DNA of 64,000 nucleotides from positions 5,354,325-5,418,324 of the forward strand of contig NC_057718.1 in assembly GCF_004010195.1 (NCBI RefSeq). The letters run 5' to 3'. This DNA is from Chiloscyllium plagiosum. Its lineage: Eukaryota. The translations under genes were made by a program, and so were the position numbers. How positions within the stretch are numbered: position 1 is the stretch's first letter; each line of letters begins with the position of its first letter. Of the stretch, positions 80 to 63,811 are shown piece after piece. Below the pieces are notes generated by a model. It saw only the letters and a program-made list of their open reading frames with translations, searched no databases and was not told where the DNA came from.

Positions 80-1190
80 GGACATCATGTTGAGGTTGAT
101 GAAGCCTCTTCTAGAATACTATGTGTAGCTCTGGTCTCCCAGTTATTGGCAGGGTATGACTAAACTGGAGAGGGTTCATAATAGATTTATCAAGATGTTA
201 CCAGGACTGGAATGTTTGAGTTATAAAAATAGGTTGGTTCGACTGGGATTTCTTTCACTGGAGCGTAGGAGGTTGAGGGGTGACCTTATAGAATTATGAA
301 GTCAGGCGAATATCAAAGGTCATTTTCCTAAGATGGGAGAATTCAAGACTAGAGGGCACATTTTTCAGGTGAGAAGAGAAAGATTTAGAAAAGACATGAG
401 GGGCAATTTTTTATGCAGAGTGGTTAGTGTGTGGAATGAACTACGAGAGGAAGTGATGGATGTGGGTACAGTTACAATGTTTAAAATGCATTTGGATAAG
501 TACATGAATAAGAAATGTTTAGAGGGATATGGTAAAATGCAGGCAGCTGGAACTAGTTTATTTTGGGAGCAAGTTGGCATGGACTAGCGAGACTGAAAGG
601 TCTGTTTGTTAATGTGGAGGAGCCAGTGTTGGACTGGGGTGAACAGTTAAAAATCACACAACACCAGGTTATAGTCTAACAGGTTTATTTAGAAGCACTA
701 GCTTTTGGAGCGCTGCTCCTTCATCTGGTAGCCGCGGAGCAGGATGATAAGACATAGAATTTATAGCAGAAGATCACCATGTCATGCAACTGAAATGATA
801 TATTGAACAGACCTAGATTGCTGTTAAGTCTTTCATCTTTTAGAATGGGTTGCAGGTTTTGGTTCATTAATATGTAAATCCTAGAAGTTCTCTCAAGTCA
901 CATAACTTAAGGATTTTTAACAAAAAGGTGACACCTCAGCTCAGACAATGCATTAAAGGTGTGAGGTTAGAGTCTGTCTGTATCTTAATTTTGATTCAGA
1001 CTGGTTCTATTGCCAAAGTGGAATATTACATGGATTGACTGCCTGCAGATTGTGCACTTTTTGAGCAAATAAGCCTGTTGGACTATAACCTGGTGTGTGA
1101 TTTTTAACTTTGTCCATGCTGTATGACTCTATGACCAGACACGAGGGACTGAATGGTCTACTCCAGTTCTTATTTCTTATGGTCTTATTG
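80..1190 (+). mobile_element. CR1 LINE 3' fragment, interrupted by a Penelope-derived insertion
   Basis: ORF 333..587 (TRGHIFQVRRERFRKDMRGNF..RVVSVWNEL) is a typical CR1 ORF2 C-terminus. The CR1 3' tail (..gctgtatgactctatga) resumes after ~1111. Confidence 0.8.
612..1112. mobile_element. Penelope-like pseudo-LTR fold-back insertion (family B)
   Basis: The left arm (gttaaaaatcacacaacaccaggttatagtctaacagg, ~646-683) is the reverse complement of the right end (cctgttggactataacctggtgtgtgatttttaac, ~1074-1108). A hammerhead-like motif lies on the minus strand at 699-727. Confidence 0.7.
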
Positions 1191-1307
1191 ACTCATTTCA
1201 TTCATCCTACATTTAATAATATTGTTCCCAATCATAGAAATCTGATTAACCAAAACAAATGGTCCTGAAGTCATGGTAATCATATAAACTTCACATTTGT
1301 ATCAGTA

Positions 1308-1513
1308 CTGGCAGTTCCTGGGTTGCGAATAGACTCCATGCTGGAGTCCAGTCACAAGTCAAGTTGTATGCAAGTCAGAAGACAATGCAGGACAATATAT
1401 AGTTTGTAAGTGGAGGAAATATTTGTATGTCAGATCTTTCAAATTACGTCCCTGGTATGCAATCATAAGCATGAGCGTTCGTAACTTGACGTTTGTAAAT
1501 CAGGGCCACCCTG
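1308..1513. mobile_element. Degenerate Tc1/mariner (Tigger/pogo-like) MITE
   Basis: TA|CTGGCAGTTCCTGGGTTGCGAA ... TTTGTAAATCAGGGCCACCCTG|TA forms degenerate terminal inverted repeats with flanking TA. Confidence 0.4.
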
Positions 1514-2931
1514 TATTCATTGTTTTAGGAGCTAAGAGATAGGAGGTGATCATCCAGCCTCTCAAGTCTGCTCGGTTCACCTTGATTGGAAATGATCTAT
1601 ACTTTCGTTCTAATCACCCTCTCTCGCTCCATGTTGGTTGAAAACCTCACCTATCAAAATTTTAGCATCCTTCATCATGAGGATGCGATAATTCCATCCA
1701 TAAACCTGTCTGGGAGAGAGAGACTTCAAAGTTTCCACCTGATTTTTTTGGGATAAAGTCTTGCTGATTTCTGCAGCTACTTTTAAGGTTGTGACCCTGT
1801 GTTCTTGATTCCTCTACCAGAGAAAGTAATTTCTCTTTGGCCTGCTTATGGAATACTTCTCACTGTTTTAAGCATTTTGGACAGGCCACCAATCGATCTC
1901 CCATCCTCAAACTGACACCGAGTGTTAACCTGCCAAGTTCTGCTGTTCTCCTGAATCTTTGGATCCGAGGTCAGTGGATCCTTGCTGACATATTGTGCCC
2001 AAACTGAAGGCAGTATTTTTTGAGTGATCTGTTTAACTAAACCATATCTATTTCCCCATTGTTGCCCAACTATTCATCAATCACTTCCCCTGCAGAATAA
2101 GCCTCCATGTTGTAGCTGAGGTCAGGAATATAAATATTTACATATTCACACTGGCTGTATCTCTTCAAAGGGGCAGGGGACTTGAATTCTAATCATTAAC
2201 GAACTCCTCAACTCAATGCACAGCAACATCTCTCAATTCCTAAGGGACAGCTTTCACTTCTGTTCAGGTTATACAAGCTTCTTGTAAGAATTTTTCTATT
2301 AGTGAGTTCATCCGAGTTCAATGCATTCAATTAGTGCAATTTGAAGCATCAGTTCGAGCTCTGTGACTTATGGATCACTGTGCACTCAGACATCTCAGTG
2401 TTATTATTAATAATAATATAAAACTTGGTCTCAGATTCCACCATGTGCCAAGCAGATAAATCCTTTTCGCATTGAGGAGAACATTGAAGGGTTTTGACAG
2501 AGAAACAAAGACAAAGTGCTTGCACTGGTGAGAGGGTCAGTAACTGGAGAACACTAATTTAACATAATTGACAGAGGAACCTCAGGGAAGTTGGGGAAAA
2601 TTTATTTTACGCGTTGAGTTATTGCCATGTGGAATGCACTCTATGAAAGGATATTGAAAGCAGACTCAATAGTAACTTGCAAAAGGGAATTGGATAAATA
2701 ATTTAAAAGGAAAAGCATGTGCAAGGCTGCATGGAGCAAATAGAGAATGGGGATTAATTGCATGGCTTCCTGAAAGTGTTGTTAAAGATATAATGGCCCA
2801 GTGGTCTCCTTGTGAACTATGTGAGTCAGCATGACGTGAATTTGCAACAGCACAGTCTCCTTCCATTATGAACAATTCAGGCTAATGAAAGTAAGGCTTT
2901 TTTATCCTGTATTAACTGAACTTTTCCACAG

Positions 2932-2968
2932 GGACCGTCTGCTTGGCTTAAATCGCAGCAATCGTGAG
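2932..2968 (+). CDS. Candidate 37-nt internal exon of an unidentified host gene (reads DRLLGLNRSNRE)
   Basis: Acceptor taactgaacttttccacag| and donor GAG|gtaaaa. One frame is open, there are three CpGs in 37 nt, and the context is not repeat-like. No homologue recognised. Confidence 0.25.
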
Positions 2969-3179
2969 GTAAAAATACTGTGTGTGTGTATGTGTACCTG
3001 CCTGAATGGATGCAGACAGCACAAGGCTTTCCTGTAGTTTAAAGCAGCAAAGAATCCTATGCATTGGCTTCCTCTGCTGGAGTCTATATGTTCGTCTGTG
3101 CTTCCCATGTTTCACACTCTAATAGAAATACCACACAAACATCCTGCAGACTCAGGTGTGATACTCACAGAAGCCAACA

Positions 3180-3384: not shown

Positions 3385-3459
3385 TTGTTCCAATCACAAT
3401 AGGCATCATGGTCAGTGCTGAAGGGCCCGTTGCTGTACTGCTCTGTTGCTGTAATGTTA

Positions 3460-3625: not shown

Positions 3626-3713
3626 ATAGAAGGTCACGGACCGTTGAATTGTCATTAAAAACCCATCCAGTACTCACTAATATTCTTTAGTGAGGGGAAG
3701 CAACTAATACTGT

Positions 3714-3741
3714 CTGAAGAAGTGCTTATGCCTGAAACGTC
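3714..3741 (+). ncRNA. Minimal type I hammerhead ribozyme motif (Penelope-associated)
   Basis: CTGAAGA-A-GTGC-TTAT-GCCT-GAAA-CGTC. Core CUGANGA and GAAA, stem II with a mismatch, palindromic ACGT stem III, GUC triplet. Confidence 0.6.
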
Positions 3742-3841
3742 GATTCTCCTGCTCCTTTGATGCTGCCTGACCTGCTGCGCTTTTCCAGGAACACATTTTT
3801 CAGCTCTGATTTCCAGCATCTGCAGTCCTCACTTTTCTCCC
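3716..3841 (+). mobile_element. Penelope-like pLTR 3' end (family A), truncated at the hammerhead motif
   Basis: Homologous to the ends of the 11620-13828 element. 10-bp TSD aatactgtct at 3706-3715 and 3842-3851. Confidence 0.85.
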
Positions 3842-7109: not shown

Positions 7110-7637
7110 ATCAGGTTTTGAGGAGGTTTGACAGGGTGGGCGATGAGGCAGATGTTTCCCTGATGGAGGAATCTAGATCCAGGGGACAAAGCTTAGAAAT
7201 AGGGCTCCTTTCAGTCAAGACAGAGATGAGAAGAAACGGTTTCTCTGAGAGTTGTGAGTCAGTCTGATTTTCTTCCAGCTAGAGCAATAGAGGCTGCGGA
7301 ACTGAGTGTATTCAAGGTTGAGTTAGACAGATGTTTGATTGACAAGGGGGTGAAAGGTCATGGGGAGGGGAATCAAACAGGAGTGGAGATAAAGCCACAT
7401 CGCATCAGTTGAGTGATGATGGATCAATCTTGAGGAGCAGAATGGTCCTGATTCTTGTGTTCAGAAATGGCTTAATTATTGGCTCTTTTTGATGTCTGTA
7501 CTTCCCTTTAGAATTTCAATCTGGGCATTTTCACAGAGTCACAGAATTATTGACAATGCTGAAGGACATTCAATCCATCATACCTGCACTCGGTCTCCAG
7601 TGTCATTCTCCTGCCCTTTCCCAGTGACCCTGCATAT

Positions 7638-7834
7638 GACAAACAAAAACAGAAGTCACTGGAAAAGTTCAGCAGGTCTGGCAGCATCTGTGAAGAGAAA
7701 TCAGAGTTAACCTTTCGGTTCCGGTGATCCTTCCTCAGAGTCTCTCTTCACAGCTGCTGCCAGACATGCTGAGCTTCTCCAGCAACTTCTGTTTATGTGT
7801 ATGATTTACTGCATCTGGAGTTCTTTTGGTTTTA
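7638..7834. mobile_element. Penelope-like fold-back insertion (family C)
   Basis: Internal inverted arms; TSD accctg(c/t)atat at 7627-7637 and 7835-7845; minus-strand CTGAGGA-A-GGATC-ACCG-GAACC-GAAAGGTT at 7709-7738. Confidence 0.8.
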
Positions 7835-11432: not shown

Positions 11433-11619
11433 ATATATTACTTAGATAACAATTACAGTCAGACATTAAACATGCTAGTGATCGTTTTGGTCAGATTTTG
11501 GATTTGTGATGTCTGACACGCTTGATTCCCAGTGCATTAATCCCATCGGGGTCATAATGTGGCTCAGAGCTAAAGAGCTTTCCTTTGATTTATTCACGGT
11601 ATGTGCTTATCTCTGGCAA

Positions 11620-13828
11620 GGAGGAGAAAGTGAGGACTGCAGATACTGGAGATCAGAGTCGAGTATGTGGTGCTGGAAAAGCACAGCAGGTCAGGCAGCA
11701 TCCAAGGAGCAGGACAATCGATGTATCGGCCATAAGCCCTTCATCAGGAAAGAGGTTTGTGCGTTGGGGCTGAGAGATAAATAGGAGGGGGTGGGGTTGG
11801 GGAAGGTAGCTGAGAAAGCAATAAGTGGATGAAGGTGATTGGTCAGAGGGGGGAGTGATGGACAGGTCCATTGGTGGTGCTGAGTTGGAGGTGTGGGACT
11901 GGGATAATATGGGGATCACAACCTCACTTCCCATCACCAAATCATCATCTCCCAGACCTTCCACAACCTCATCACCTCTGGGGATCTTCCATCCACAGTT
12001 TCCAACCTCATTTTCCATGAGCCACTGCCCGATTCTACCTCCTTACTAAGATTCACAAACCTGACTGCCCCGGGTCGGCCCATTGTCTCAGCCTGTGCCT
12101 GTCCCACTGAAGTCATCTCTCCCTACCTTGGCACCATCCTGTTCCCCCTTAATCCAGGAATTCCCCACCTATATTCGTGAGACAACCCATGCCATTCACG
12201 TCCTCCAAAATTTTCGTTTCCCTGGTCCCCACCGCCTCATCTTCACCATGGACATCCAGTTGTTCAGCCACAATGAAGCACTCAGTTTCTTCCTCTCACG
12301 CCATCCGATCCAGTACCCTTCCCCGACACCCTCATCCACCTGGCTGAACTGGTCCTCACCCTCAACAACTTTGTCTTCCAATCCTCTCACTTTCTCCAAA
12401 CCAAAGGGGTAGCCATGGGCACCCGCATGGGACCCAGCTATACCTGCCTGTTTGTCAGATACGTGGAAAAGTCCGCATTCCACAGTTACACCGGCACCAT
12501 TCCCCACTTTTTTCTCTGCTACATTGATGACTATTTTGGCACCACCTTGTGCTCCCACAAGGAGGTTGAACAGTTCATCCACTTCACCAACACCTTCCAC
12601 CCTGACTTCAAATTCACCTGGACCATCTCAGAAATCTCCCTCCCCTTCCTGGCCATCTCCAACACTCTCTCTGGCGACCGATTAACCACATATATACTAC
12701 AAGCCCACCAACTCCCACAGCTACCTAGACTACACCTCCTCCCACCCTACCTCCTGTAAAAACGCCATCCCTTATTCCAAATACTTCCGTCTCCACCGCA
12801 TCTGTTCCCAGGATGACCAATTCCACCTCAAAGTCCCAGATGGCCTCTTTCTTCCACGATCGCAACATCCCTTCCTACGTGGTTGATGATGCCCTCCAGC
12901 TCATCTCCTCACTTCACGCACCCCTCCCAATGCAGTAAGGATAGAACCCCCTTGGTCCTCACCTTCCACCCCACCAAGCTCCGTATACAATGCCTCATCT
13001 TCCGCCACTACTGCCATCTCCAAACGGACCCCACCACCAGACATATATTTCCCTCCCTACCCCTATCAGCATACCAAAAAGACCATTCCCTCCGTGACTC
13101 TCTCATCAGGTCCAAGCCCCCCACCAGTCCACACCCCACTCCTGGCACCTTTTCCTGCTACCGCAGGAAGTGCAAAACCCTCACCACTCCCCTCACCTCT
13201 GTCCAAGGCCCTAAGGGATCCTTCCACATCCATCAGAAATGTATCTATACCTCTACCAATGTCATCTACTGCATCCGTTGCACCCAGTGTGGTCTCCTCT
13301 ACATCGCGGAGACAGGACGCCTTCTTGCGGATCGTTTCAGAGAATATCTCTGGGACACCCACACCCATCAACCCCACCGATCTGTGGCTGAACACTTCAA
13401 CTCCCCCTCCCACTCCATCAAGGACATGAAGGTCCTGGGTTCCTCCACAGCCAAACCGTTCCCACCAGACACCTATAGGAGGATCGCCTCATATTCTGCC
13501 TTGGGACCTTGCAACCACACGGGATAAATGTGGATTTCAACAGCTTCCTCATTTCCCCTATCCCTACATTATCCCAGTCCCAAGCCTCCAACACGGCACC
13601 ACCCTCCGACCCATCCATCATTGCAGCCTCTGACCTACCACCTTCTCCCTCACCTTCATCCACCTATCACTTTCCGAACAACCTTCCCCCAAACCCCAAA
13701 CCCCATAACCTCCCATTTATCTCTCAGCCCCGACCCACAAGCCTCACTCCTGGTGAAGGGCTCACTCGACTCTCCTGCTCCTCGGATACTACCTGACCTG
13801 CTGTGCTTTTCCAACAACACACTCTCTA
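11620..13828 (+). mobile_element. Penelope-like retroelement (RT + GIY-YIG endonuclease), 5'-truncated, with inverted 5' pseudo-LTR
   Basis: RT motifs MGTRMGPSY and YIDD (12415..12759). Cys-rich linker CYRRKCKT and GIY-YIG-type VIYCIRC..LYIAETGR (12883..13527). 11620-~11915 is an inverted copy of the 3' end. Exact 14-bp TSD cttatctctggcaa (11606-11619 and 13829-13842). Confidence 0.92.
11916..13527 (+). pseudogene. Frameshifted Penelope RT/GIY-YIG ORF
   Basis: Coding motifs are spread over several frames (ORFs 12083, 12415, 12883) with frameshifts and stops. Confidence 0.85.
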
Positions 13829-14619
13829 CTTATCTCTGGCAAAACCAGCAGTTGTTGACCGTCCTTGATTTGTCTTGAGAAAATGTTGTTTACCCACCCT
13901 CAACCCTTACCAGTTGAACAGTAAAGATATAAGAAGATCCCAGATAAAAACAGTGCCTCCAAATGGTTCAGAACCATTGTGGCTGATCTATCATAACCCA
14001 TAACTAGCCCCCATCTCTCTGTCTGAGTGGAAATATTTGTTTTGATTATAAACCCTCTTTCAGGAATGGCATGGTTATAATGTCGCAAGTAACCAGAGAC
14101 TCAGGTCGATACTTTAGGCGATCAAATCCTGCCTTGGACAAAAGTCTGGAATCGAAGGTTAATCTCAGAGATGGTGACTAGGAATCTCTGGGCTGGATTT
14201 TCTGAATAATGGCAAACATAATCAGATTACACTCCATTCCTAACATTTGAATTTTAAGAAACAGCTCTACATTTCTGACAGAATTTTCTGATCATGGGTC
14301 CTGCAGAAATATAGAGCCTACCTTCAATCCAATTGTGTTCATCATTACGGGGAGGATAGGCAGGAGGTGGGGGGGGGGCCCAAATCAGGCATTTTTTTTT
14401 AACAGCTGTAGCTACTGAATTCTGCAACTCAAATTTTCAGCAACACAGCTATCCACTTGAAGGCTCTTTTGAAATGGAAATTTGTGAGCTAAGTGTGGGA
14501 CTATGGTGCCAAGTGGGAAAGGTGGCAGATGGGTGAGATGTCAAGTAGGCAGGGTGCCAGGGTGAAACGTGCATGGGGTGCCAATTGGATGGATTGCCAT
14601 GATACTATATGGGAAGTGT

Positions 14620-21712: not shown

Positions 21713-21909
21713 TACTGAAAACAAAAAATGCTGGGGATGACAACAGGTCAGACAGCACCCTTGGAGAGAAAGCAAGCTAACATTTCCTGAAGGTCATCGG
21801 AACTTGACATGTTAGCTCGCTCTCTCTCCATGGTTGCTGCCTGACCCACTGTGATCTCCAGAATTTGTTGTTTCAGTACAGATTCCAGCATCTGCAGTAA
21901 TTTCCTCCT
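21713..21909. mobile_element. Penelope-like fold-back insertion
   Basis: Inverted arms; 14-bp TSD actctctggaaagt (21699-21712 and 21910-21923); tail cagcatctgcagt. Confidence 0.8.
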
Positions 21910-25997: not shown

Positions 25998-26530
25998 AGA
26001 GAATCCCTACAGTGTAGAAATAGGCCGTTCACTCCATCAAGTTTGCACCGATCCTCCGAAGAACATCACACCCAGACCCATTACTCCACATTTACCACGT
26101 CTATTCTTCCTAATCTGCACATCTCTGGACACTATGGGCAATTTAGCATGGCCAGTCTACCTAAACTGCATACACTGTGGGAGGAAACTGAAGCAGGAGA
26201 AAGTGAGGACTGCAGATGCTAGAGATCAGAGGCAAAGAATGTGGTGCTGGAAAAGCGTCCGAGGAGCAGGAGAGCCAACATTTCGAGCATCATGAATGAG
26301 CTCTTATTCCTGATGAAGAGATTATGCCCAAAACATTGACTCTCCTGCTCCTCGACTGGCTGTGCTTTTCCAGTGCCACACGCGAGGAAACTAAAGCACC
26401 TGGCAGAAACCCACACAGAATTGGGGATAATGTGCAAACTCCACACAGAGAGTAACCCAAGGCTGGAATTGAACCTAGGTCCCTAGGGCTGCAGTGCAGT
26501 ATTGCTAACCACTGAGCCACCATGCCACCC
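25998..26530 (-). mobile_element. HE1-like V-SINE interrupted by a Penelope insertion
   Basis: The antisense V-SINE halves join across 26196-26383. Confidence 0.85.
26196..26383. mobile_element. Penelope-like fold-back insertion (family A)
   Basis: 15-bp TSD gaggaaact(g/a)aagca (26181-26195 and 26384-26398); inverted arms; decayed hammerhead ctgatgaagagattatgcccaaaac. Confidence 0.85.
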
Positions 26531-28108: not shown

Positions 28109-28544
28109 CCAAGATGTACTGCCTGAGGATGAGGTTGAAGCAGGTTCAGTCAAGGCATTTGAAAGATCATTATCCAAAAAGGAATAGATTAAAGTGTTGT
28201 ACATACTTCCCTTCATAGGACCAGCACAGACAAGAAGGGCTGAATTGTCTCCTTCTGTACTATAATTAATCAGTGATTCTATTAAACCAACAAAGATGTA
28301 TCTTCTCTAATAATAACTGCAGTCATTTGGTTTGTCTCCAGCACCATCTTATTTGTGATTATTTGAGATTATTGCTTTGCTTTAATTAATCAGTTGATTG
28401 GTCATTCCTTCACTTGTTATTCAGCTTGTTGACATCCTACTCACACCATTTGTGCTTATCTGTTGACATTCTTAATCATCTGGAATAATTTGCCATTACC
28501 TCGCTGCCAATATAATCTGTGCCTGTGCGCTTTCCTTCTCTTCA

Positions 28545-28666
28545 TCTGACAAAGAAGCTGCACTCCAAAAGCTTGTTATTATAAATAACCCTGTTGGACT
28601 ATCACCTGGTGTCATGTGCCTTCTGACTGTCCACTCCAGTGCAACACCGGCACCTCCACATCATGG
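28545..28666 (+). mobile_element. Penelope-like pLTR end (family B)
   Basis: Homologous to the reverse complement of 612-727 (ctgttggacta..acctggtgt..cagt..aacaccggcacctccacat). Confidence 0.7.
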
Positions 28667-29754: not shown

Positions 29755-29886
29755 GTCAAAAATATGTGGTGTTGGAAAAGCACAGCCAGTCAGGCAGCAT
29801 TGGAGGAGGAGAGTGGACGTTTCAAGCATAAGTTCTTCATCACTTTTTGATTCTGATTTCCAGCATCTGCAGTCCTCACTTTCTCT
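29755..29886. mobile_element. Penelope-like insertion with inverted left arm (family A)
   Basis: Degenerate 15-bp TSD cagaagattctgcca / cagaagactctgtca (29740-29754 and 29887-29901). Confidence 0.75.
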
Positions 29887-36581: not shown

Positions 36582-37445
36582 ATCCATTTGAGGGATGTGT
36601 GCATTACTGGATGGGTCAACATTTATTGCATTCCTCTAGTTGCGCTTGAGAAGGTGGTCGTGAGCTGCCTTCTTAAACCACTCCAGTCCACCTACTGTAA
36701 GTAGACCCACATTAACCTTAAGGAGGGAGTTCCAGGATTTTGACCCAGTAACAGTGATGGAATGGTATATATTACATAAATCAGGATGGTGAGTGGTTTG
36801 GAGGGAAAGTTGCAGGTGGTGGTATTCACATGTATCTTGTCTTTCTAAATGGAAGTTGTCTTGGGTTTAAAAGGTGCTTTCTATGGATCTTTGAATTTCT
36901 GCAGTGCATCTTGTAGATCGTACACACTGCTGTTACTGAGCATTGGTGGTGAAGGGAGTGATGCTTGTGGATGTGGTGCCAGTCAAGCAGGTTGCTTTGT
37001 CCTGTACGGTGTCAAGCTTCTTGAGTGTTGATGGAGATGCACCCGCCCAGACAGGTGAGGGGTATTCAGTCACACTCCTGACTCGTCCCTGTAGATGGTG
37101 GGAGAAAGTGAGGATGCAGATGCTGGAGATCAGAGTCAAAACGTGTGGTGCTGGAAACGCACAACAGGTCAGGCAGCATCCGAGGAGAAGGTGAGTCAAT
37201 GTTTTGGGCATAAACCCTTTGTCAGGCGTTTGGGTGTGGGGGAGGTTTGTGGTGGGGAAGGGGGCTGAGAGATAAATAGGAGGTGGGTGGGCTGGGGGAA
37301 GGTAGCTAGGAAGGCAGTTGCCTCAACAGACTTTCAGGAGTGAGGAGGTGGATCACTCACCTCAATATTCCTACCCACTGACCTGCTCTTGCAGCCTTTG
37401 TGTTTATATGGTGAATCCAGTTGAGGTTCTGGTCAAAGGTAACTC
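36582..37445 (-). mobile_element. L2/CR1-group LINE 3' fragment with a Penelope pLTR insert (~37102-37320)
   Basis: ORF 36933..37211 reads EYPSPVWAGASPSTLKKLDTVQDKA. The insert matches 11620-11820. Confidence 0.8.
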
Positions 37446-38552
37446 TACTCTTCTGCTCTGCTTTGAACCTCATCTGCTACCTGTCCGTCCATCCTACCAA
37501 CTTGTCCACCTCCTTTTGGAGTTCGAATGTCCTCCTCATGTTTTACAATTTTTCTGAGTTTCCTGTCATCAGCAAATTTTGAAATTATTGCTTGCACACC
37601 AAGACCTATTTCAGGAAAAGCAAAAATCCCCTGAGAATGACAAAGCTGCCTCCAGCTCAAAAACTATCTGTTTTCCATGACCCTCTGTTTTCTATCACTC
37701 GTCCAATTTTGTAATGTCGACCTGTAATTGTTATTTTCTGTTGTTTTCTGGAGCTCTTATGTATGTTGGACGTTTTCTGTTTGTTTGGATTTTCTATCTA
37801 ACTGCACTTTTACTTTTAATTTCTGATGTATGCTCGGAATTAGAGAGAAATTCATCCAGCATGAAATCTTCACCAGCCACTTGGTGTAACTGATTGATTG
37901 TTACTGAATGAATCAAAATGGGAATTTTAAAAAAATTGTTCTGCGAATTACAAAAATGACTTTACTAAGGTAATGGTTTCTGAGAATGTGTCCATAAATC
38001 ACTCAAACCATCTCAATTTGAAGTTATAAATCACTGCTCAATGTTTTGGGCTTTGAGTGTAATGCCAGTATGAAACAGAAATGTAAAGGGTCCCCTTGAG
38101 ATTAAGAATAATTCAAATACATTTAGTAATATCGAACTAATCAGAGAATGGTCACAGCATAGAAAGAGGACATTTAGTTCTTTGTATTCATGGAACCCCT
38201 TGGAAAGAGCAATTTAGCTCAGCCCACTCCCCTACCTTCTCCCTGTGGACCTGCAATTTCTTCCTCTGTAGATAATTATCCAAATCTCTTTGAAAGCTGC
38301 AACTGAATCTGCCTCTATCACATTTTCAGATCCCAATCACTAGCTGGGTACAAATGGGCAGAAAGAAAATCGACGCACCCCATCTACCCCACTTAAACTT
38401 GGAAAATGTCTTATAATCCACAGTGGTTGGCTGTCTGCCTTGAGACTGGGGATACTGTACTCCTTTCACTACCAGACCTGAGGCAAGTCAGACTAATAGA
38501 GTGGGTAATGGGATGGCTGAGCTCGGAGATGTGTCACTGATGTTCAACTCAG

Positions 38553-38781
38553 AATTGAGAGTGTAGTGCTGGAAAAGCACAGCCGGTCAGGCAGCAGCCG
38601 AGGAGCAGGAGAATCAACATTTATGGCATAAGCCCTTCATCAGGATGGGCTTTTCTGATGAAGGGCTTATGCCCAAAACATTGATTCTCCTGCTCCTTGG
38701 ATGCTGCCTGACCTGCTGTGCTTTTCCAGCACTACATTCCTGACTCTGATCTTCAGCATCTGCAGTCCTCACACTCTCCTC
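38553..38781. mobile_element. Penelope-like hairpin insertion (family A)
   Basis: ~90-bp inverted arms meeting at two opposed hammerhead remnants, plus a ~40-nt unpaired tail. 16-bp TSD ctgatgttc(a/g)actcag (38537-38552 and 38782-38797). Confidence 0.9.
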
Positions 38782-40534: not shown

Positions 40535-41490
40535 TACCTCCAATAAGAGATAATCTAACCATTGACCCTTGACATTCAATGGCATTACCATCTATGAATC
40601 CCCTACTATCAACATCCTGGAGGTTACTATTGACCCGAAGCTCAACTGGACTCACCACATAAACACAGTAGCTATAAGAGCATGTCAGAGGCTGGGAATA
40701 CTGTGAGAAAGTGAGGACTGCAGATGCTGGAGACCAGAGTTGAAACATGTGGTGTTGGGAATGCGCAGCAGGCCAGGCAGCATCCGAGGAGCAGGAGAAT
40801 CGACATTTCGGGCATAAGCCCTTCTTCAGGAATGAATGAATTCCTGCTCCTCGAATGCTGCCTGGCCTGATGCCTTTTCCCAGCACCACACTTTTCAACG
40901 CTGGGAATACTGTGGCAAGTAACTCACTTTCTGACTCCCTGAAGCCTGTCCACATCTACAAGGTACAAGTCAGGCATGTGATGGAATATTCCCCATTTGC
41001 CTGGATGGGTGCAGCTCCAACAACACTCAAAATCTTCACACCATCCGGGACAAAGCAGCCAGCTCTATTGGCATCACATCGACAAGCATCCACTCCCTCC
41101 ATCACCGACATTCAGCGGCAGCCGTGTGCACTATCTGCAAGATGCACAGCATAAGTTCTCCAAAGATCCTTCAACAGCACCTTCCAAACCCACAATCACT
41201 ACCATCTAGAAGGACAAGGACAGTAGATATATGGGAACACCACCACCTGCAAAATCCACTCCAAGTCACTCACCATCCTGACTTGGATATATTGTATATC
41301 ACCATTCCTTCACTGTTACTAGTTTAAAATTCTGGAATTCCCTCCTGAAAGGCATTGTGGGTCAATATACAGCACTTGGACTGCAGCAGTTCCAGAGGGC
41401 AGCTCACTCCCACCTTCTCAAGGGGCAACTACGGATGGGCAATAAATGCTGGGTCAGCCAGTGACACACACTTCCCATGAGTGATTGAAA
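40535..41490 (+). mobile_element. L2/CR1-group LINE 3' fragment
   Basis: Reads INILEVTIDPKLNW..; IYKVQVRHVMEYSPFAWMGAAPTTLK; shared 3' tail. Confidence 0.8.
40706..40899. mobile_element. Penelope-like fold-back insertion (family A)
   Basis: Exact 15-bp TSD gctgggaatactgtg (40691-40705 and 40900-40914). Minus-strand CTGAAGA-A-GGGC-TTAT-GCCC-GAAA-TGTC at 40802-40829. Confidence 0.9.
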
Positions 41491-47230: not shown

Positions 47231-47234
47231 TGTT

Positions 47235-47758
47235 CAAGTTGTGAAAAGTTCATGCAAGTGGACTCAGAAAGGAACTCTAAAATTGTGTCCACATTCTAAG
47301 GAAAATAAACCCAGAGGAATCAGTTAAGTAAAATCTGAGTGGAAGATCTGAGATGGGAATGAAATGTCTCTAGAATGGAATATCTGTAAAAGGATAGTGT
47401 TTGGAAACAGGTTGAAAGTTTTTGCTTTTTATATTGTGTGTATTTATATTATATGTGCATAAATCTATTATTTTTACTCTTTTGTGGCATAAACTTATAA
47501 TCTGTTCTTAAAGTACATCTGCAGCCTCAAGTGAATATGTTTCAGTGACCAATCACCTTGCAAATCAACTGCAAAAGTTAAATGTATGATTGATCAAGCC
47601 AGGTCTTGTTCAGGCATTCTGATGAAGGGCCTCTGGACCTGAAAAGTTAACGCTGTCTCTCCCTTTATAGATGCTGCCAGACCTGCTGAATGTTTCCGGC
47701 AATTTCTGTTTTGGTCCCATTCTGGAATCTGTCTTGTCCAGCAGTTGGGATTGCAACA
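47235..47758 (+). mobile_element. LTR-like repeat fragment with a Penelope pLTR insert (~47615-47715)
   Basis: Homologous to 53928-54298; ends ..gggattgcaaca. The insert carries CTGATGA-A-GGGCC-TCTG-GACCT-GAAAAGTT (47619-47648). Confidence 0.55.
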
Positions 47759-49940: not shown

Positions 49941-50749
49941 GTGGGCCGAGCAATGGTAGATGGAGTTTAATTTAGATAATTGCGAGATGCTGCATTTTGG
50001 TAAGACAAACCAGAGCAGGACTTACACAATTAATGGGAGGGTCCTGGGGTGTGTTGTTGAACAGAGACACTTAGGGGTGCAGGTGCACAGTTCTTTGAAA
50101 GTGGTGTTACAGGTAGGACGGGTGTTAAGGAAGGTGTTTGTCATGTTAGCCTTCATCAGTCAGAGCACTGAGTACAGGAGTCGGATGTCATGTTATGGCT
50201 GAACAAGACATTGTTAAGGTCGCATTTGGAAAACTGCTTACAATTCTGGTCAAACTGCTAATAGGAAGGATGTTATTAAACTGAAAAGAGTGCAAACAAA
50301 TTTCTGAAGTTGTTGTCGAGACTGGAAGGTTTGAGTTATAAGGAGAGGCTGGATAGGCTAGGACTTTATTCACTGGAGCACAGGAGGCTGAGGGGTGGCC
50401 TAATAAAGTTTAATGAAGTCATGAGAGTCATAGAGTCATAGAAATGTACAGCATGGAAACAGACCCTTCGGTCAAACCTGTCCACGCCGACCAGGCATAG
50501 ATAATCTGGATAATCAAGATCTTTTTCCCAGGAAGTCCAAAACTGGTGAGAGGGGAAAGATTTAAAAAGGACTTAAGAGGCAACATTTTTTCCACATTTG
50601 TACATCAAGTCCCTCCTCCCTACCTTTTATCTTTGCCTGCTTGGCACACCTTCCTCATTCCTGAAGAAGGGCTTATGCCCGAAACATCGATTCTCCTGCT
50701 CCTTGGATGCTGCCTGACCTGCTGCACTTTTCCAGCAACACATTTTTCG
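49941..50749 (+). mobile_element. Chimeric insert: sense CR1 fragment plus Penelope pLTR end
   Basis: MEFNLDNCEMLHFG.. CR1 piece, then family-A pLTR with hammerhead CTGAAGA-A-GGGC-TTAT-GCCC-GAAA-CATC (50661-50688). Flanked by taccag(a/g)tatccca at 49927-49940 and 50750-50763. Confidence 0.7.
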
Positions 50750-52423
50750 TACCAGGTATCCCAACTCAATCTAGTCCCACTTGCCAGCACTCGGCCCATA
50801 TCCCTCTAAACCCTTCCTATTCGTATACCCATCCAGATGCCTCTTAAATGTTGCAATTCTACCAGCCTCCAACACTTCCTCTGGCAGCTCACTCCACACA
50901 CGCACCACCCTCTGCGTGAAAAAATTGCCCCTTAGGTCTCTTTTATATCTTTCCCCTCTTATCCTAAACTTGTGCTCTCTAGTTTTGGACTCCCACACCC
51001 CAGGGAAAATACCTTGTCTATTTACCCTGTCCATGCTTCACATGATTTTATAAACCTCTATAAGGTCACGCCTCAGCCTCTGACGCTCCAGGGAAAACAG
51101 CCCTAGCTTATTCAACCTCTCCCTATAGCTCAAACCCTCCAACCCTGGTAATATCCTTGTAAATCTTTTCTGAACCCTTTCAAGTTTCGCAACATCCTTC
51201 GATAGGAAGGAGACCAGAATTGCACACAATATTCCAAACGTGGCCTAACCAATGTCCTGTACAGCCTCCCATCTCCTGTACTCAATGCTCTAACCAATAA
51301 AGGAAAGCATACCAAAGGCCTTTTTCACTATCCTATCTACATGCAACTCTACTCTAAGGTCTCTTTGTTCAGTAACACTCCCTAGGACCTTACCATTAAG
51401 TGTATAAGTCCTGCTAAGATTTGCTTTCCCAAAATGCAGCACCTCGCATTTATCTGAATTAAACTCCATCTACCACTCCTCAGCCCATTGGCCCATCTGA
51501 TCAAGATCCCATTTAAATTCAAGGTAACATTCTTACTTGTCCATACACCTCCAATTTTGGTGTCATCTGCATACTTACTAACTGTACCTCTAAAGCTCAC
51601 ATCCAAATCATTTAAATAAATGATGAAAAGTAGTGGACCCGTCACTGATCCTTTTGGCTCTCCACTGGTCACAGGCCTCCAATCTGAAAAACAACTCTCC
51701 ACTATCACCTTCTGGCTTCTAGCTTTGAGCCAGTTCTGTATCCAAATGGCTAGTTCACCCTGTATTCCATGAGATTTAATCTTGCTAACCAGTCTCCCAT
51801 GGGGAAACTTGTCAAACACCTTACGAGAGTCCATATAGATCATGCCAACCACCCTACCCTCATCAATTCTTTTTGTTACTTCTTCAAAAACCTCAATCAA
51901 GTTTGTGAGACATGATTTCCACACACAAAGCCATGTTGACTATCCCTAATCAGTCCTTGCCTTTCCAAATACATGTACATCCTGTACCTCAGGATTCCCT
52001 CCAACAACTTGCCCACCACTGAGGTCAGGCTCACTGGTCTATAGTTCCCTGGCTTGTCTTTACCGCCCTTCTTAAACAGTGGCACCACGTTAGCCAACCT
52101 CCAGTCTTCCGGCACCTCACCTGTGACTATCGATGATACAAATATCTCAGTAACAGGCCCAGCAATCATTTCCCTAACTTCCCAATGAGTTCTAGGATAC
52201 ACCTGATCAGATCCTGGGGATTTATTCACTTTATGCGTTTCAAGGCATCGAGCACTTCCTCCTCTGTAATATGGACATTTTTCAAGATGTCACCACCTAT
52301 TTCCGTACATTTTATATCTTCCATGTCCTTTTCCACAGTAAACACTGATGCAAAATGCTCATTTAGTATCTCCCCATCTCCTGCGGCTCCACACAAAAGG
52401 CCGCCTTGCTGATCTTTGAGGGG

Positions 52424-52592
52424 ATTGAACGAAGATTAGAGTGGTGCAGGAAAAGCACAGCAGGTCAGGCAGCATCTGAGGAGCAGAAAAATCGACATTT
52501 CGAGCAAAAACCTTTCATCGGGAATGAGATATCATGCATCACTCTAATCTTGACTCTAATCTCCAGCATCTGCAACATCCACTTCTGCCTAC
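52424..52592. mobile_element. Penelope-like insertion with inverted left arm, inside the CR1
   Basis: Exact 15-bp TSD ctgatctttgagggg (52409-52423 and 52593-52607). Confidence 0.88.
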
Positions 52593-54662: not shown

Positions 54663-55162
54663 NNNNNNNNNNNNNNNNNNNNNNNNNNNNNNNNNNNNNN
54701 NNNNNNNNNNNNNNNNNNNNNNNNNNNNNNNNNNNNNNNNNNNNNNNNNNNNNNNNNNNNNNNNNNNNNNNNNNNNNNNNNNNNNNNNNNNNNNNNNNNN
54801 NNNNNNNNNNNNNNNNNNNNNNNNNNNNNNNNNNNNNNNNNNNNNNNNNNNNNNNNNNNNNNNNNNNNNNNNNNNNNNNNNNNNNNNNNNNNNNNNNNNN
54901 NNNNNNNNNNNNNNNNNNNNNNNNNNNNNNNNNNNNNNNNNNNNNNNNNNNNNNNNNNNNNNNNNNNNNNNNNNNNNNNNNNNNNNNNNNNNNNNNNNNN
55001 NNNNNNNNNNNNNNNNNNNNNNNNNNNNNNNNNNNNNNNNNNNNNNNNNNNNNNNNNNNNNNNNNNNNNNNNNNNNNNNNNNNNNNNNNNNNNNNNNNNN
55101 NNNNNNNNNNNNNNNNNNNNNNNNNNNNNNNNNNNNNNNNNNNNNNNNNNNNNNNNNNNNNN
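54663..55162. other. Assembly gap (500 N)
   Basis: Run of N. Confidence 1.
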
Positions 55163-57265
55163 GTATGTCAGCCTGGATTCTGGGCAGTAACATCCTGTTC
55201 TCTGGGCGGTATCTGCCTGGTCTCTGGGCAGTATGTCAGCCTGGTCTCTGGGTGTTATGTCAGTCTAGTCTCTGGGTGGTATGTCAGTCTGGTCTCTGGG
55301 TGGTATGTCAGCCTGGTCTCTGGGCGGTATGTCAGCCTGGTCTCTGGGTGGTATGTCAGTCTAGTCTCTGGGTGGTATGTCAGTCTGGTCTCTGGGTGGT
55401 ATGTCAGCCTGGTCTCTGGGCGGTATGTCAGCCTGGTCTCTGGGTGGTGTGTCAGCCTGGTCTCTGGGTGGTATGTCAGTCTGGTCTCTGGGCAGTATGT
55501 CAGCCTGGTCTCTGGGTGGTACGTCAGTCTGGTCTCTGGCTGGTATGTCAGTCTGGTCTCTGGGTGGTATGTTAGTCTGGTCTCTGGGCAGTATGTCAGC
55601 CTGGTCTCTGGGTGGTATGTCAGTCTGGTCTCTGGGTGGTATGTCAGCCTGGTCACTGGGCGGTATGTCAGCCTGGTCTCTCGGCATTATCAGCCTGGTT
55701 TCTGGGTGGTATATCAACCTGGTCTCTGGGCAGTATGTCAGCCTGGTCTCTGGGCTGTATGTCAGCCTGGTCTCTGGGCATATATATCAGTCTGGTCTCT
55801 GTGCAGTATCAGCCTGGTCTCTTGGCAGTATCAGCCTGTTCTCTAGGCAGTATGTCAGCCTGGTCTCTGGGCGGTATCTGCCTGGTCTCTGGGCAGTATG
55901 TCAGCCTGGTCTCTGGGCAGTGTCAGCCTGGTCTCTGGGTGGTATGTCAGCCTGGTCTCTGGGTGGTATGTCAGCCTGGTCTCTGGGCAGTATGTCAGCC
56001 TGGTCTCTGGGTGGTATGTCAGTCTGATCTCTGGGCGGTATGTCAGTCTGGTCTAGGGCTGGTATGTCAGTCTGGTCTCTGGCGGTATGTCAGCCCTGGT
56101 CTCTGGGTGGTATGTCAGCCTGGTCTCTGGGTGGTATGTCAGCCTGGTCTCTGGGCGGTATGTCAGCCTGGTCTCTGTGCGGTATGTCAGCCAGGTCTCT
56201 GGGCAGTATGTCAGTCTGGTCTCTGGGCGGTATGTCAACCTGGTCTCTGGGCGGTATGTCAGCCTGGTCTCTGGGTGCTATGTCAGTCTGGTCTCTGGAC
56301 AGTATCAGCCTGGTCTCTGGGCAGTATGTCAGCCTGGTCTCTTGACAGTATCAGCCTGGTCTCTGGGTGGTATGTCAGCCTGGTCTCTGGGCAGTATGTC
56401 AGCCTGGTCTCTGGGCATATATATCAGTCTGGTCTCTGGGCAGTATCAGCCTGGTCTCTGCGCAGTATGTCAGCCTGGTCTCTGGGCGGTATGTCAGCCT
56501 GGTCTCTGGGCGGTATGTCAGCCTGATCTCTGGGCAGTATCAGCCTGGTCTCTGTGCAGTATCAGTCTGGTCTCTAGGCAGTATGTCAGCCTAGTCTCTG
56601 GGCGGTATCAGCCTGGTCTCTGGGCGGTATGTCAGCCTGGTCTCTGGGCAGTATCAGCCTGGTCTCGGGGCAGTATCAGCCTGGTCTCTAGGCAGTATGT
56701 CAGCCTGGTCTCTGGGCAGTATCAGACTGTTCTCTGGGCAGTATCTGCCTGGTCTCTGGGCAGTATGTCAGCCTGGTCTCTAGGCGGTATGTCAGCATGG
56801 ATTCTGGGCGGTATGTCAGCCTGGTCTCTGGGCAGTATCAGCCTGGTCTCTGGGTGGTATATCAGTCTGGTCTCTGGCGGTATGTCAGCCTGGTCTCTGT
56901 GCGGTATGTCAGCCTGGTCTTTGGGCAGTTTTAGCCTGGTCTCTGGGCGGTATGTCAGCCTTGTCTTGGGCAGTATGTCAGTCTGGTCTCTGTGCGGTAT
57001 GTCAGCCTGGATTCTGGGCTGTATATCAGCCTGATCTCTGGGTGGTATGTCAGCCTGGTCTCTGGGCTGTATATCAGCCTGATCTCTGGCGGTATGTCAG
57101 CCCTGGTCTCTGGGTGGTATGTCGGCCTGGTCTCTGGGTGGTATGTCAGCCTGGTCTCTGGGCGATATGTCAGCCAGGTCTCTGGGCAGTATCAGCCTGG
57201 TCTCTGGGTGGTATGTGAGCTTGGTCTCTGGGCAGTATGTCAGCCTGGTCTCTGGGCGGTATGTC
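55163..57265. repeat. Tandem satellite, 24-bp unit GGTATGTCAGCCTGGTCTCTGGG(C/T) with 22-bp variants
   Basis: Continuous array of roughly 90 units (estimated from length), running into the gap. Confidence 0.97.
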
Positions 57266-61045: not shown

Positions 61046-62099
61046 AATGCATTTATACAATCCCAATTCCAGTTAACATGATCTGAATGGTAAGTGGAAT
61101 GGTGTGCAAACCTGGGGTGGAGGATTGGAGGTGTCGACGTTAAGACTTTGTAAATGAAGTGATTCAACCTTGTCAGCAATTGAACAAATAGCTCAATCAG
61201 TTATGTTGAAAGGTGCAATTGCCTCCTCATTTCTGGCTGGCAAGCATGAAAGGTCCTCAGCAGATTCACATCCCACACACCAGCAAGGGCTTCACTTTAT
61301 TCTGATCTGCATGCCTGGAACAGATTGTGGCTCTCAGGTTGAGTAACAAAAAGAAATCGCGTTTCACGGAAAGGACTGTGATTTTGATTGAAGTGAGCAT
61401 TATATAAAGTCACACAGAACTCAGTTATTGAGTTTCAATTGTCCAGATTGAGGCGTGAAGAGAATATAAAAGTGTCACCAATTAGGTGGGAAAGCAAGTA
61501 GACGAAACGAGATTGTCACACCAAACAGAGAAAGAATAATAAGGTCTGCTTTTTCCAGGAACTGTACGGGGAGAGGAGAGCAAGGTCGAAAGAAAAGAAA
61601 GTAATGAACAAACAGGAAGAGGAGAGAAAGTTGGGAGGGGTGGGGGAGGGCGAGCTGCAAGGAAGAAAAGGGGTGGGGGTGGGACTGATGGGCGGGCTAG
61701 CAACAGAAGGTGAAAAACAAAAGTGACAAGTAGAGGAGAACCAGAGGAGTAAAGCACAAAAGAGAGAAGGAAAGGAAAGGAAGAAGGACAAAGGGCAAGA
61801 GACATCGGGGATGGTAGAGAGTGAGTGAGTGAAAGAGAAGAGAGATGAAGAGAGTGATTACCTCTTTATTGTTTTTTTTCCCTCAGTGTCCTGATACAAC
61901 ACACCATTGGTAGCCACATGAGTGATCATCTGACAGCCCTGGGTTATTGGAGCTACCAGGATTAGTTGGGGATTCAGGCAGAGCGGCCTTTCTCTCCTAA
62001 CTACACTGAGGGACACCTCTGACCTCCACTCAAATATCACCCACAGCAGAACTATGAGCAAACCTTTCAATAAGAGTGAGGTATTGAAACAATACTGGC

Positions 62100-62360
62100 A
62101 CTCCCTCGTCCACAGTCCACTGGGTATCACTCTCACCTTAGTCTTGAAGCCAGAGGTCTGAGGCTTGAGACCCTTTACAGACACCTGAGACCATAAAATA
62201 AGCTGACATTCCTGAGTAGGACTGAGGGGGTGCTGTACTGGCGAAGGTTCCTTTTCTTTAGAGTTGGATGTTAAACCAAGACCCCAGCACAGGGTAACAG
62301 ACCCCAATGCATAAACAGAAGAAAATTAAAGGTATTCTGCCAGTAACTTCATCAAAGTTA
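62100..62360 (+). mobile_element. Deu-domain SINE fragment
   Basis: actgagggggtgctgtactg..ggatgttaaaccaagacccc. Confidence 0.5.
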
Positions 62361-62414
62361 TTACTTCAGCCCACAGTTTGGAAGAAAATGAGCAAAAAAC
62401 AAATGTTAACTAGA

Positions 62415-62585
62415 GAATGGAAAGGGTGAAAGGGCAAGGGTGAAGGTATAAGGATGAAAGGATAAGGGTGAAGGGATAAAGATTAAAGAATAAATGTAAA
62501 GGGTAAGAGTGAAGGGATAAAGGTTAAAGGGTAAATATAAAGAGTAAGGGTGAAGGGATAAAGGTTAAGGAGTAAGGATGAAGTG
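62415..62585 (+). repeat. Degenerate 6-7-bp purine-rich tandem repeat (TAAGGG/TGAAGGG-like)
   Basis: Direct inspection. Confidence 0.75.
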
Positions 62586-63474
62586 AGAGAAAGGACAAAC
62601 CCTGGGATCGTAAAAGTGAAAGCTGTGCTTAAGCATAGAGATGGTGGGCAGCTGTGATAAGGAGTTGAGAAACATGAGCAGAATCTTGAGATGCAAGAGA
62701 GGCTGTTTGAGAAGGACGGATAGATATAATTCTAGTCCACCACTGAATTGATGAGAACACAGAGTAGCAAGTGAATGATAGACAGACAGGCAATTTATCG
62801 TCACTGTTCCCAGGTCTGGATTAATCCAAAAGTAAAATACTGAAGCTGGTGGCAATCCGAAATAAAATCAGAAACTGTTAGAAATACTTGGCAAACCAGA
62901 TACCATCTGTGGAGAGGGAGAAAAACCAAGGGCTGAATCTTTTGTCTTCTGAGCATGAATTGCATTGAGTTTAATGGAGGGATCTTCACTGTAAAATCGC
63001 AAGGGTTTTTTGCCCTGTCTTACCAAACTTATCTCAATAACTAGACACCATATCGCTTTGGCATTCATCACACCCGTTTCCAGCCCAATCTTACCACGGG
63101 CTGGTCCCAGAACAACCCAGCACTCAAGACATCCACTGAAAGAATGGCATCCCTTGCATCCACACTATCTTTGAAAGGCCACTATGTGCCTGGACAAGTG
63201 TTGGCAACCTGGCATTACCCTTCATTAGCCATGGCATAGTACAGCAGCCACAGGTTGACCATAGTGACAAAGCCAGTGCAGCTGGCATTCCCTCACACAA
63301 AAACAAGCACATTCTCTCAGCTTTGTTGCTCAGACAATCTAGTTTACTCAGCCTTAGCTACATCCCACCCATACACAGTCTCTAAGTCACCATGCCCAGA
63401 GCACAGCTAAATGTTATCATTGATCAGAGAGTGGAGCATCAGATAAAGGGATGTAATTAGACAATTCTAAATAT

Positions 63475-63811
63475 GGATGTAGGTTTGCTCGCTGAGCTGG
63501 GAGGTTCATTTCCAGACATTTCATCACCCTACTAGGTAACATTTTCAGTGGGCCTCAGACGAAGCACTGCTGATAAGTCCTGCTTTCAATTTATATGTTT
63601 GGGTTTCTTTGGGTTGGTGATGTCATTTCCAACCCAAAGAAACCCAAATATATAAATTGAAAGCAGGACTTATTAGCACTACTTCATCTGAGGCCCACTG
63701 AAAATGTTACCTAGTAGGGTGATGAAACGTCTGGAAATGAACCTCCCAGCTCGGCGAGCAGACCTACATCCAGAACCTCAATCTGAGCTACAAATCTTCT
63801 CAAAACTCGCT
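63475..63811. mobile_element. Penelope-like hairpin insertion (family D) with hammerhead motif
   Basis: ~143-bp inverted arms (63475-63617 / 63629-63771), 11-nt loop, 40-nt tail. Exact 12-bp TSD aattctaaatat (63463-63474 and 63812-63823). Confidence 0.88.
63695..63734 (+). ncRNA. Type I hammerhead ribozyme motif, with core G8 mutated to A
   Basis: CCA-CTGAAAA-TGTTACC-TAGTAG-GGTGAT-GAAA-CGTC-TGG. Stem I CCA/TGG, stem II GTTACC/GGTGAT, palindromic ACGT, GUC site. An antisense twin lies at ~63512-63551. Confidence 0.6.

Follow-up and report, generated by a model that had tools for sequence, protein, structure and literature searches.

Minimal type I hammerhead ribozymes (min-HHRs) have been reported in the Penelope-like elements (PLEs) of fish, the coelacanth, Xenopus and reptiles (Cervera and De la Pena 2014, PMC4209133), and the traits that mark them beyond the bases of a search descriptor are an extra base between positions 9 and 10.1, a G10.1-C11.1 closing pair and a palindromic 15.2-16.2 step; their cleavage as dimers is attributed to Lunse, Weinberg and Breaker, as cited in PMC6765202. 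PLEs carry structural signatures of their own, namely truncation at the 5' end, a 5' copy in inverted orientation and a 'tail' that is optional and is explained in two studies by the existence of two internal start sites for reverse transcription (PMC8557442, PMC11167929), while their promoters and transcription start sites are assigned, in a tandem, to the terminal repeat belonging to the upstream partner (PMC6765202, PMC8557442). Here we analyze a stretch of 64,000 nucleotides (nt) of Chiloscyllium plagiosum (contig NC_057718.1, positions 5,354,325 to 5,418,324), referred to below in its entirety as the window, in which a hammerhead-like pattern recurs in four repeat families, A to D. Our analysis indicates that this pattern is very probably a min-HHR residing in the 3'-terminal segment of PLEs, the equivalent of a pseudo-long terminal repeat (pLTR), and that the window holds at least 16 copies of it belonging to four lineages.

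The correspondence with the metazoan PLE min-HHR of PMC4209133 runs feature by feature and bears out the identification of the pattern as a minimal type I PLE hammerhead that a first-pass annotation of this DNA had proposed. The conserved boxes, the unpaired base, the closing pair, a palindrome devoid of loop 3 and a short helix I are common to both, as are the coexistence within a genome of many sequence families, with compensatory changes between them, and the prevalence of solitary motifs derived from truncated elements, alongside some close pairs on opposite strands. Our motifs differ from those of Schistosoma and Drosophila in that helix II comprises 4-6 bp instead of the 6-8 bp stressed for the latter, and from those of the published hosts in that they occur in a shark-like genome and at high density (16 motifs in 64 kb). 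As regards the elements, 5' truncation, a fold-back made by an inverted copy, an optional tail, a target-site duplication and the order of a reverse transcriptase (RT) followed by a Cys-rich linker and then, at the C-terminus, a GIY-YIG domain are all shared with the endonuclease-positive PLEs described by Craig et al. (2021, PMC8557442) and Frangieh et al. (2024, PMC11167929); the tail, however, measures 42-47 nt here against the 30-40 bp quoted there, and the direct pLTR-open reading frame (ORF)-pLTR unit of those elements was not seen in the window.

Two further systems invite comparison. The type I hammerheads found in newt satellite 2 and in Schistosoma Sm-alpha (Hammerhead_1) have the same core, an open helix I and a weak helix III that is proposed to form between two copies; in contrast, the short helix III hairpin, the loop-loop contacts and the detectability by Rfam that distinguish them are all missing here. 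Animal retrozymes lacking long terminal repeats (non-LTR retrozymes), which have been surveyed together with PLEs in a preprint that includes one cartilaginous fish (10.64898/2026.07.22.740005), likewise possess a type I hammerhead and are related in sequence to PLE terminal repeats, but they form head-to-tail arrays, of which the window has none. Our literature search returned no description of these shark-type families, and the fish and coelacanth families in the supplement of PMC4209133 may be closer to them. The kind of motif is already known (Cervera and De la Pena 2014, PMC4209133), and it is the families themselves that constitute new members.

Anatomy and pairing of the motif

Genomic copies of the four families were taken from the 3.56-Gb assembly (L001-L030 being loci of family A, L061-L090 of family C and L091-L114 of family D) and a covariance model, R1, was built on them; 131 R1 matches, 118 of them distinct, were examined, three loci representing the window itself and three motifs cut at their 5' end having been dropped before the counts given below. 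In the structural parse the motif proceeds from the 5' strand of helix I through C3-U4-G5-A6-N7-G8-A9, one unpaired base, helix II and G12-A13-A14 to A15.1-N-N'-U16.1 (where N and N' are complementary and no loop intervenes), H17 and a 3' strand of helix I of 3-4 bp. The conserved boxes C3-A9 and G12-A14 are found in all four families. Helix II, closed by G10.1-C11.1, is 4 bp long in family A, 5 bp in B and C and 6 bp in D, and the base between A9 and 10.1, assignable in 130 matches, is an A without exception in families A (57/57), B (29/29) and C (32/32) and a U in all copies of family D (12/12). H17 is C in families A and D and U in B and C. The tetranucleotide palindrome reads ACGU in families A, C and D and AGCU in B, so that the switch of stem III between ACGT and AGCT that had been noticed on first inspection, with both forms palindromic, stands. 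Since only four bases separate A14 from H17, there is no space for a loop, and a closed helix III hairpin of the type seen in Rfam hammerheads is not encountered in these motifs.

Over the 118 distinct matches, 85.0% of the helix cells are paired as compared to 63.1 +/- 0.9% in 500 shuffles, none of which reached the observed value, and double-sided changes affect 272 cells, as compared to 96.8 +/- 7.3 in the shuffles; these counts confirm the early impression that the sequence of stem II varies while its pairing is kept. At least two Watson-Crick types occur at nine of the ten counted pairs, the tenth, A15.1-U16.1, being invariant as expected of a core pair (15.1-16.1 is A-U in 114/118). At 10.4-11.4 families A, B, C and D have C-G, G-C, U-A and A-U, respectively; at the helix I pair 1.1-2.1, families A and B both have G-C, family C has A-U and family D has U-A. 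Changes of this sort are also found within families: family C displays a G-C, G.U, A-U series at 10.3-11.3 and a variant (L050) with A-U turned to G-C at 1.2-2.2, and two subfamilies of family B have G-C and A-U, respectively, at 1.3-2.3. The closing pair 10.1-11.1 is G-C in 69 of the distinct matches, G.U in 39 (C11.1 lies within a CpG), A-U in three and something else in seven; for 15.2-16.2 the figures are 46 C-G, 24 G-C, 16 U.G, one G.U and 31 others. Separately, a family A-like motif at L054:2278-2317 exhibits a compensatory double change from C-G to U-A at helix II pair 10.4-11.4.

These counts depend on how the motifs are aligned. MAFFT alignments of the motif turned out to be structurally wrong, A1 moving family B by one column and A2 misplacing family D, and R1 carries the family B shift of A1, so that counting pairs on its alignment understates the pairing (72.5% versus 61.2%, with slid partners at 21.8-47.7%). 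The matches were accordingly re-parsed by structure in a script in which helix II pairing acts as the tie-breaker, and the parse hence leans toward the structure.

Copies in the window and their Penelope-like origin

The pattern is present at all nine of the sites named in the first-pass annotation, and R1, run on the window with its filters off, returned 25 matches at E<=10, 14 of them at E<=0.05; the best 16 (E<=0.61) are all copies of families A to D, comprising the nine named sites and seven further ones (Table 1). As R1 was trained on relatives of the window copies, its E-values speak for family membership and are no independent proof of a ribozyme. A plain descriptor of the form CTGANGA-N5-35-GAAA has 17 occurrences in the window, as compared to 8.3 +/- 3.1 per dinucleotide shuffle (100 shuffles, none with as many as 17); just five of the 17 words fall within named copies because the remaining named copies have core lesions. 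Sixteen motifs in the 64-kb window and 41 incidental matches in approximately 278 kb of flanks of 90 loci suggest a genome total on the order of 10^5 motifs, an order of magnitude only, because both samples are biased to PLE-rich DNA.

Table 1. Coordinates of hammerhead motifs and associated structures in the window; 'further' denotes the seven copies additional to the nine named at the outset
Feature	Position	Strand	Evidence and state
Family B motif	694-733	-	R1 23.9 bits, E 6e-4; lesions U4>A, G12>A
Family A motif	3708-3747	+	R1 27.8 bits; mispair at helix II 10.2
Fold-back, 7.7 kb	arms 7636-7698 and 7743-7805		family C motif in 44-nt gap
Family C motif	7703-7744	-	R1 12.9 bits, E 0.61; G.G at 15.2/16.2, helix II mispair
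Target-site duplication, 13 bp, left	11608-11620		same 13 bases at 13830-13842
Inverted 5'-truncated copy heading the PLE insertion	~11621-11753	(motif inside on -)	sequence reading
Family A motif in inverted 5'-truncated copy (further)	11714-11753	-	R1 13.4 bits; A14>U, C.A at 15.2/16.2, helix II mispair
Decayed RT and GIY-YIG frame	11914-13482	+	tblastn with P0003 residues 253-791, 34% over 547 aa, E 8e-69
Hammerhead remnant of the insertion itself	13750-13772	+	helix II 3' strand and GAAA box deleted
Target-site duplication, 13 bp, right	13830-13842		sequence reading
Family A-like motif, decayed (further)	26304-26343	+	R1 17.9 bits; G12>A, C.A, helix II mispairs
Family B motif	28540-28580	+	R1 28.6 bits; G8>A, G12>A, helix II mispair
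Family A-like motif (further)	29810-29846	-	R1 21.0 bits; C3>A, helix II partly lost
Family A-like motif (further)	37192-37231	-	R1 17.7 bits; G8>A, G12>A, C.A
Fold-back, 38.6 kb	95-nt arms 38549-38643 and 38655-38749		family A pair central
Family A motifs, head-to-head pair	38610-38649 (further) and 38649-38688	- and +	centre of fold-back
Fold-back, 40.8 kb	arms 40734-40796 and 40842-40904		family A motif in 45-nt gap
Family A motif, best preserved	40796-40835	-	R1 40.4 bits, E 2e-8; sole change C15.2>U (U.G wobble)
Family C motif, A.G 15.2/16.2 subfamily	47613-47654	+	R1 36.7 bits
Family A motif, young copy	50655-50694	+	R1 38.2 bits; G16.2>A
Family A-like motif (further)	52488-52527	-	R1 18.9 bits; U4>C, helix II mispair
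Fold-back, 63.6 kb	149-nt arms 63474-63622 and 63624-63772		family D pair inside
Family D motifs, head-to-head pair	63509-63554 (further) and 63692-63737	- and +	both G8>A; within fold-back

In the aligned loci, most of which hold 5'-truncated copies, a defined 3' end follows the motif after ~95-135 nt, and in the longer copies endonuclease remnants lie ~190-700 nt upstream of it. The view of RT and endonuclease comes from a few loci, since stretches of N cover coding parts of the elements in L004, L007, L008, L010, L024, L043 and others. For family A, a reading frame of 217 amino acids (aa) at positions 699-1352 of locus L028 shares 43% identity with the final 180 residues of the 816-aa protein P0003 over an alignment that spans the Cys-rich linker and the GIY-YIG motif; the matches of this frame are two shark proteins and P0003, and the closest named proteins come from Rhincodon and Chiloscyllium. 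Because the Pfam GIY-YIG match of the frame on its own is weak (E 0.25), the link of family A to PLEs relies on homologues that have both RVT_1 and GIY-YIG: P0003 scores 26.2 bits for RVT_1 at residues 304-477 (cut-off 29.6) and 20.3 bits for GIY-YIG at 720-761 (cut-off 22.6), and the shark protein P0001 scores 23.2 bits for GIY-YIG, which is over the Pfam cut-off. Loci of the other families are matched by the same proteins, L038 of family B by P0001 (E 8e-6) and L062 of family C and L113 of family D by P0003 (E 2e-17 and 7.5e-7). GIY-YIG remnants thus lie upstream of the motif in all four families, in support of the earlier proposal that several ribozyme-bearing Penelope lineages reside in this genome, and we are highly confident that the motif is a true PLE min-HHR.

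Two parts of the initial description need qualification. The four families do represent four lineages, yet they are not wholly distinct, given that A and C are homologous over ~60-100 nt on the downstream side of the motif; a blastn comparison of the 3' parts of B and D with those of the other families gave no match. The label 'pLTR' is apt inasmuch as the motif sits in the 3'-terminal segment of a PLE, but loose when applied to the window copies, which are 5'-truncated 3' ends and fold-backs. All of the window copies are dead on arrival or decayed, consisting of 5'-truncated tails, fold-backs and one insertion with an RT-endonuclease (EN) frame. Judging from the identity of genomic copies to the window copy (94.8-99% in A, 91-95% in D, 83-90% in B and 80-86% in C), the younger families are A and D and the older ones B and C. 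With respect to distribution, 55-85% of sampled words of a family A stretch (L021:1440-1690) were found in runs of four organisms coded A-D, which would make family A common to several of the labelled hosts or to close relatives; no RNA run was among those listed for this stretch. Family D loci (L091-L114) are peculiar in having a variable array of ~18-nt repeats upstream and a TATAAATA word ~52 nt before C3, and three truncated copies of this family start at or before the TATAAATA word and not at the hammerhead.

The window contains four fold-backs, in which the sense motif is either paired with its own inverted copy (38.6 and 63.6 kb) or occupies the loop that a 63-bp stem closes (7.7 and 40.8 kb), neither arrangement favouring a dimer; an adjacent inverted copy is also seen at 6/30 family A loci. 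Two classes of 3' end, separated by 42-47 nt, divide the 30 family A loci (e.g. L021:1462-1513) into 14 long ones, which have an extra stretch of ~45 nt, and 16 short ones, and loose ends in the sequencing runs gather at two places separated by the same 42-47 nt. We take these two classes to be the 'tail' signature of PLEs (PMC8557442, PMC11167929). The same two classes of 3' ends are observed in family C (L061-L090) as well as in family A (L001-L030).

No copy in the window is free of lesions, as the first-pass annotation had stated: 16/16 depart from the ideal motif, the mildest being those at 40796-40835(-) and, next, 50655-50694(+). The departures are mostly at CpG sites; those in the boxes cluster at the CpGs N7-G8 and C11.1-G12, and the variable CpGs (N7-G8 in family B, C11.1-G12 in all families, C15.2-G16.2 in A, C and D, and C17-G1.1 in A) occur as CG, TG and CA among copies, in agreement with the view that CpG decay underlies many of the lesions. 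At a CpG where the window copy keeps CG, both decay products are seen among the genomic copies; the excess of CA in the family B sample arises because its loci were chosen by likeness to the window copy. Defining as intact a motif that combines the boxes, helix II, 15.1-16.2 pairing and an H17 other than G, and counting over natural copies instead of family consensus sequences, we find 47/131 intact motifs (28/57 in A, 3/29 in B, 8/32 in C and 8/12 in D), and 18/50 among the window and incidental matches. The question of activity can hence be put to natural intact copies; that any one of the window copies is active is highly improbable. A subfamily of family C has A.G in place of C-G at 15.2/16.2 and comprises 11 copies chosen by their likeness to the window copy (window 47613-47654, L066, L067, L070, L073, L075, L076, L077, L082, L084 and L087), with 0/9 instances among the incidental family C matches.

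Possible cleavage, probable transcription start and competing explanations

Drawing on the literature, we envisage that a lone motif, having no helix III of its own, could not reach the active fold. Two copies of the motif, on the same RNA or on two RNAs, would pair through their palindromic 15.1-16.1 tetranucleotides and thereby make the missing helix III, whereupon each core would cut 3' of H17 (C or U here); such cleavage would trim tandem or read-through transcripts. Whether intact copies may self-cleave appreciably in vivo strikes us as nearly a balanced question, with the negative answer slightly favoured.

A second aspect of the life cycle is suggested by the 5' ends of the short copies. 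Upstream homology ends 0-6 nt before C3 in 10/30 family A copies, 6-9 nt before it in 15/27 of B and 0-5 nt before it in 24/28 of C, and in few copies 10 to 41 nt before C3, the starts of short copies being non-random; examples of such starts are window 50655, L065:2417 and L021:1592. In the sequencing runs the depth of family A drops about five-fold just before the hammerhead, with diverse loose ends. Long copies display, around this point, an initiator-like YYANWYY with its A at -4 in 10/14 of family A and 4/4 of C and at -7 in 3/5 of B, together with an AT-rich word ~30 nt further upstream (13/14 in A, 3/4 in C, 3/5 in B). These sequence features make it likely that the 5' ends of short copies correspond to the terminal repeat's own transcription start, a reading that is in line with the published promoter and start site in PLE repeats. 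More tentatively, and as a scheme that we deem rather unlikely as it stands, the hammerhead of families A, B and C might lie at the 5' end of a promoter-driven transcript, copies of ~130-180 nt being full-length complementary DNAs of uncut transcripts mobilised in trans, and the ribozyme might serve to trim read-through or tandem RNAs, or to remove a capped leader, and not to make templates.

Several points weigh against the interpretation of these motifs as PLE min-HHRs that cleave as dimers. On the structural side, the proposed structure guided the fitting of R1 as well as of the structural parse, and the covariation amounts to few independent events (four lineages and a few subfamilies). 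The search with type I hammerhead models that the first-pass annotation had suggested as a check came out negative, no Rfam hammerhead model matching, at the gathering threshold or at E<=10, either in the window or in L007:1350-1750 (401 bases with an intact copy), a failure that is as expected because the motif is devoid of helix III. When folded as monomers with ViennaRNA, four natural copies with an intact motif do no better than shuffles (z from -0.93 to +0.55), and in the dimer folds the palindromic region is used by the family A dimer only, the folds telling little either way. On the side of cleavage, neither a direct tandem of motifs nor a pLTR-ORF-pLTR unit nor a same-strand pair of motifs flanking the RT-EN frame was seen within the window, so that a dimer partner is absent within it. 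In the raw RNA run X21, 2393 reads of either orientation lie on a family A copy, 97% of them continuing into unrelated flanks, which looks like passive read-through; the reads do not pile up as molecule ends at the predicted cut, although the power of this comparison is low (a poly(A) single-cell library, ~2% of the run). Min-HHR cleavage is slow in vitro (PMC4209133) and cleavage is dispensable for insertion in vitro (PMC11167929), and the 11 copies of the A.G subfamily imply that a source with a broken palindrome still spread.

The alternative that survives best holds that PLEs keep the motif mainly for another job, such as a 5'-leader or protein-recognition structure, and that the hammerhead chemistry is vestigial or hitch-hiking; it overlaps in part with our preferred reading, and we regard it as unlikely. 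All genomic copies of the motif span the cut site, meaning that their template RNA was uncut there, and neither the copies nor the RNA reads include a class that starts at position 1.1. The spread of the family C subfamily with A.G at 15.2/16.2 points the same way, as do the reports that catalytic mutants have no effect on insertion in vitro and that Anolis RNA-seq has no ends at the cut site (PMC11167929), and that PLE clades devoid of the hammerhead proliferate well (PMC8557442). However, eleven core bases needed for catalysis only, along with a non-G H17, have been kept across lineages whose 3' sequence is otherwise unalignable, which is more than a mere hairpin signal would need, and PLE hammerheads do cleave in assays, slowly or as dimers (PMC4209133; PMC6765202 citing Lunse et al.). 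Taken together, the uncut templates, the lack of ends at 1.1, the read-through and the A.G subfamily temper a central role for cleavage, in agreement with PMC11167929 and PMC4209133, and they do so within the min-HHR reading, to which we adhere.

That the copies are instead non-autonomous non-LTR retrozymes or elements resembling short interspersed elements (SINEs), with tandem hammerhead repeats and circular RNA, and not autonomous PLEs, is quite improbable. Many copies are indeed only ~130-180 nt long and start just before the hammerhead, and the preprint cited above ties vertebrate retrozymes, one cartilaginous fish included, to PLE pLTRs (10.64898/2026.07.22.740005). The copies are nevertheless dispersed and bordered by target-site duplications, their longer representatives reach endonuclease remnants upstream in all four families, and none of the five rows that Tandem Repeats Finder reported for the window contains the motif.

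A chance resemblance within ordinary repeats unrelated to hammerheads, which could appeal to the lack of an Rfam match and to the ~8 occurrences of CTGANGA...GAAA boxes that are due to chance in 64 kb, is scarcely credible, for it is contradicted by the pair counts and the upstream endonuclease remnants, that is, by the boxes, the bulge, the closing pair and the palindrome being kept alike in four lineages, with compensatory helix changes, and by the location of every family's motif at the PLE position where the literature places hammerheads.

Other features of the window and implications

A Pfam search of 26 reading frames of the window gave a single match, to RVT_1, at 51382-51939(-) (E 8.7e-12). 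We considered this frame as a partner of the motif at 52488-52527 and did not make the link, P0003 having no match there; it probably belongs to another kind of retroelement that happens to lie beside that motif. A U6 snRNA-like stretch at 30575-30679(-), with 34.1 bits against the Rfam gathering threshold of 44, is probably a U6 pseudogene. Near-matches to Rfam microRNA families all fall under gathering, among them MIR5565 (63.4 bits against 80), mir-190 and mir-3202; at least these three (window 63571-63675 and 38613-38685) sit on the fold-backs at 63.5 and 38.6 kb and are not microRNA genes, and two more sub-threshold matches of this type are found at 26258-26357 and 21744-21848. A minisatellite at 55163-57265, made of 24-nt units in 89 copies with 85% matches, adjoins a gap of N at 54663-55162.

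These findings leave the picture of what such motifs are unchanged, but they extend the range of hosts of hammerhead-bearing PLEs by a cartilaginous fish, in whose genome at least four lineages are present and the density of copies is very high. The natural intact motifs, together with mutated ones (G8>A, G12>A and the A.G palindrome), amount to a ready-made mutant series. The question that concerns this class of ribozymes as a whole is the role of cleavage in the life cycle of the element, and in this respect a young, abundant family existing side by side with subfamilies of broken palindrome could be of help, as could the 5' ends of the short copies, which point to a start just before the ribozyme.

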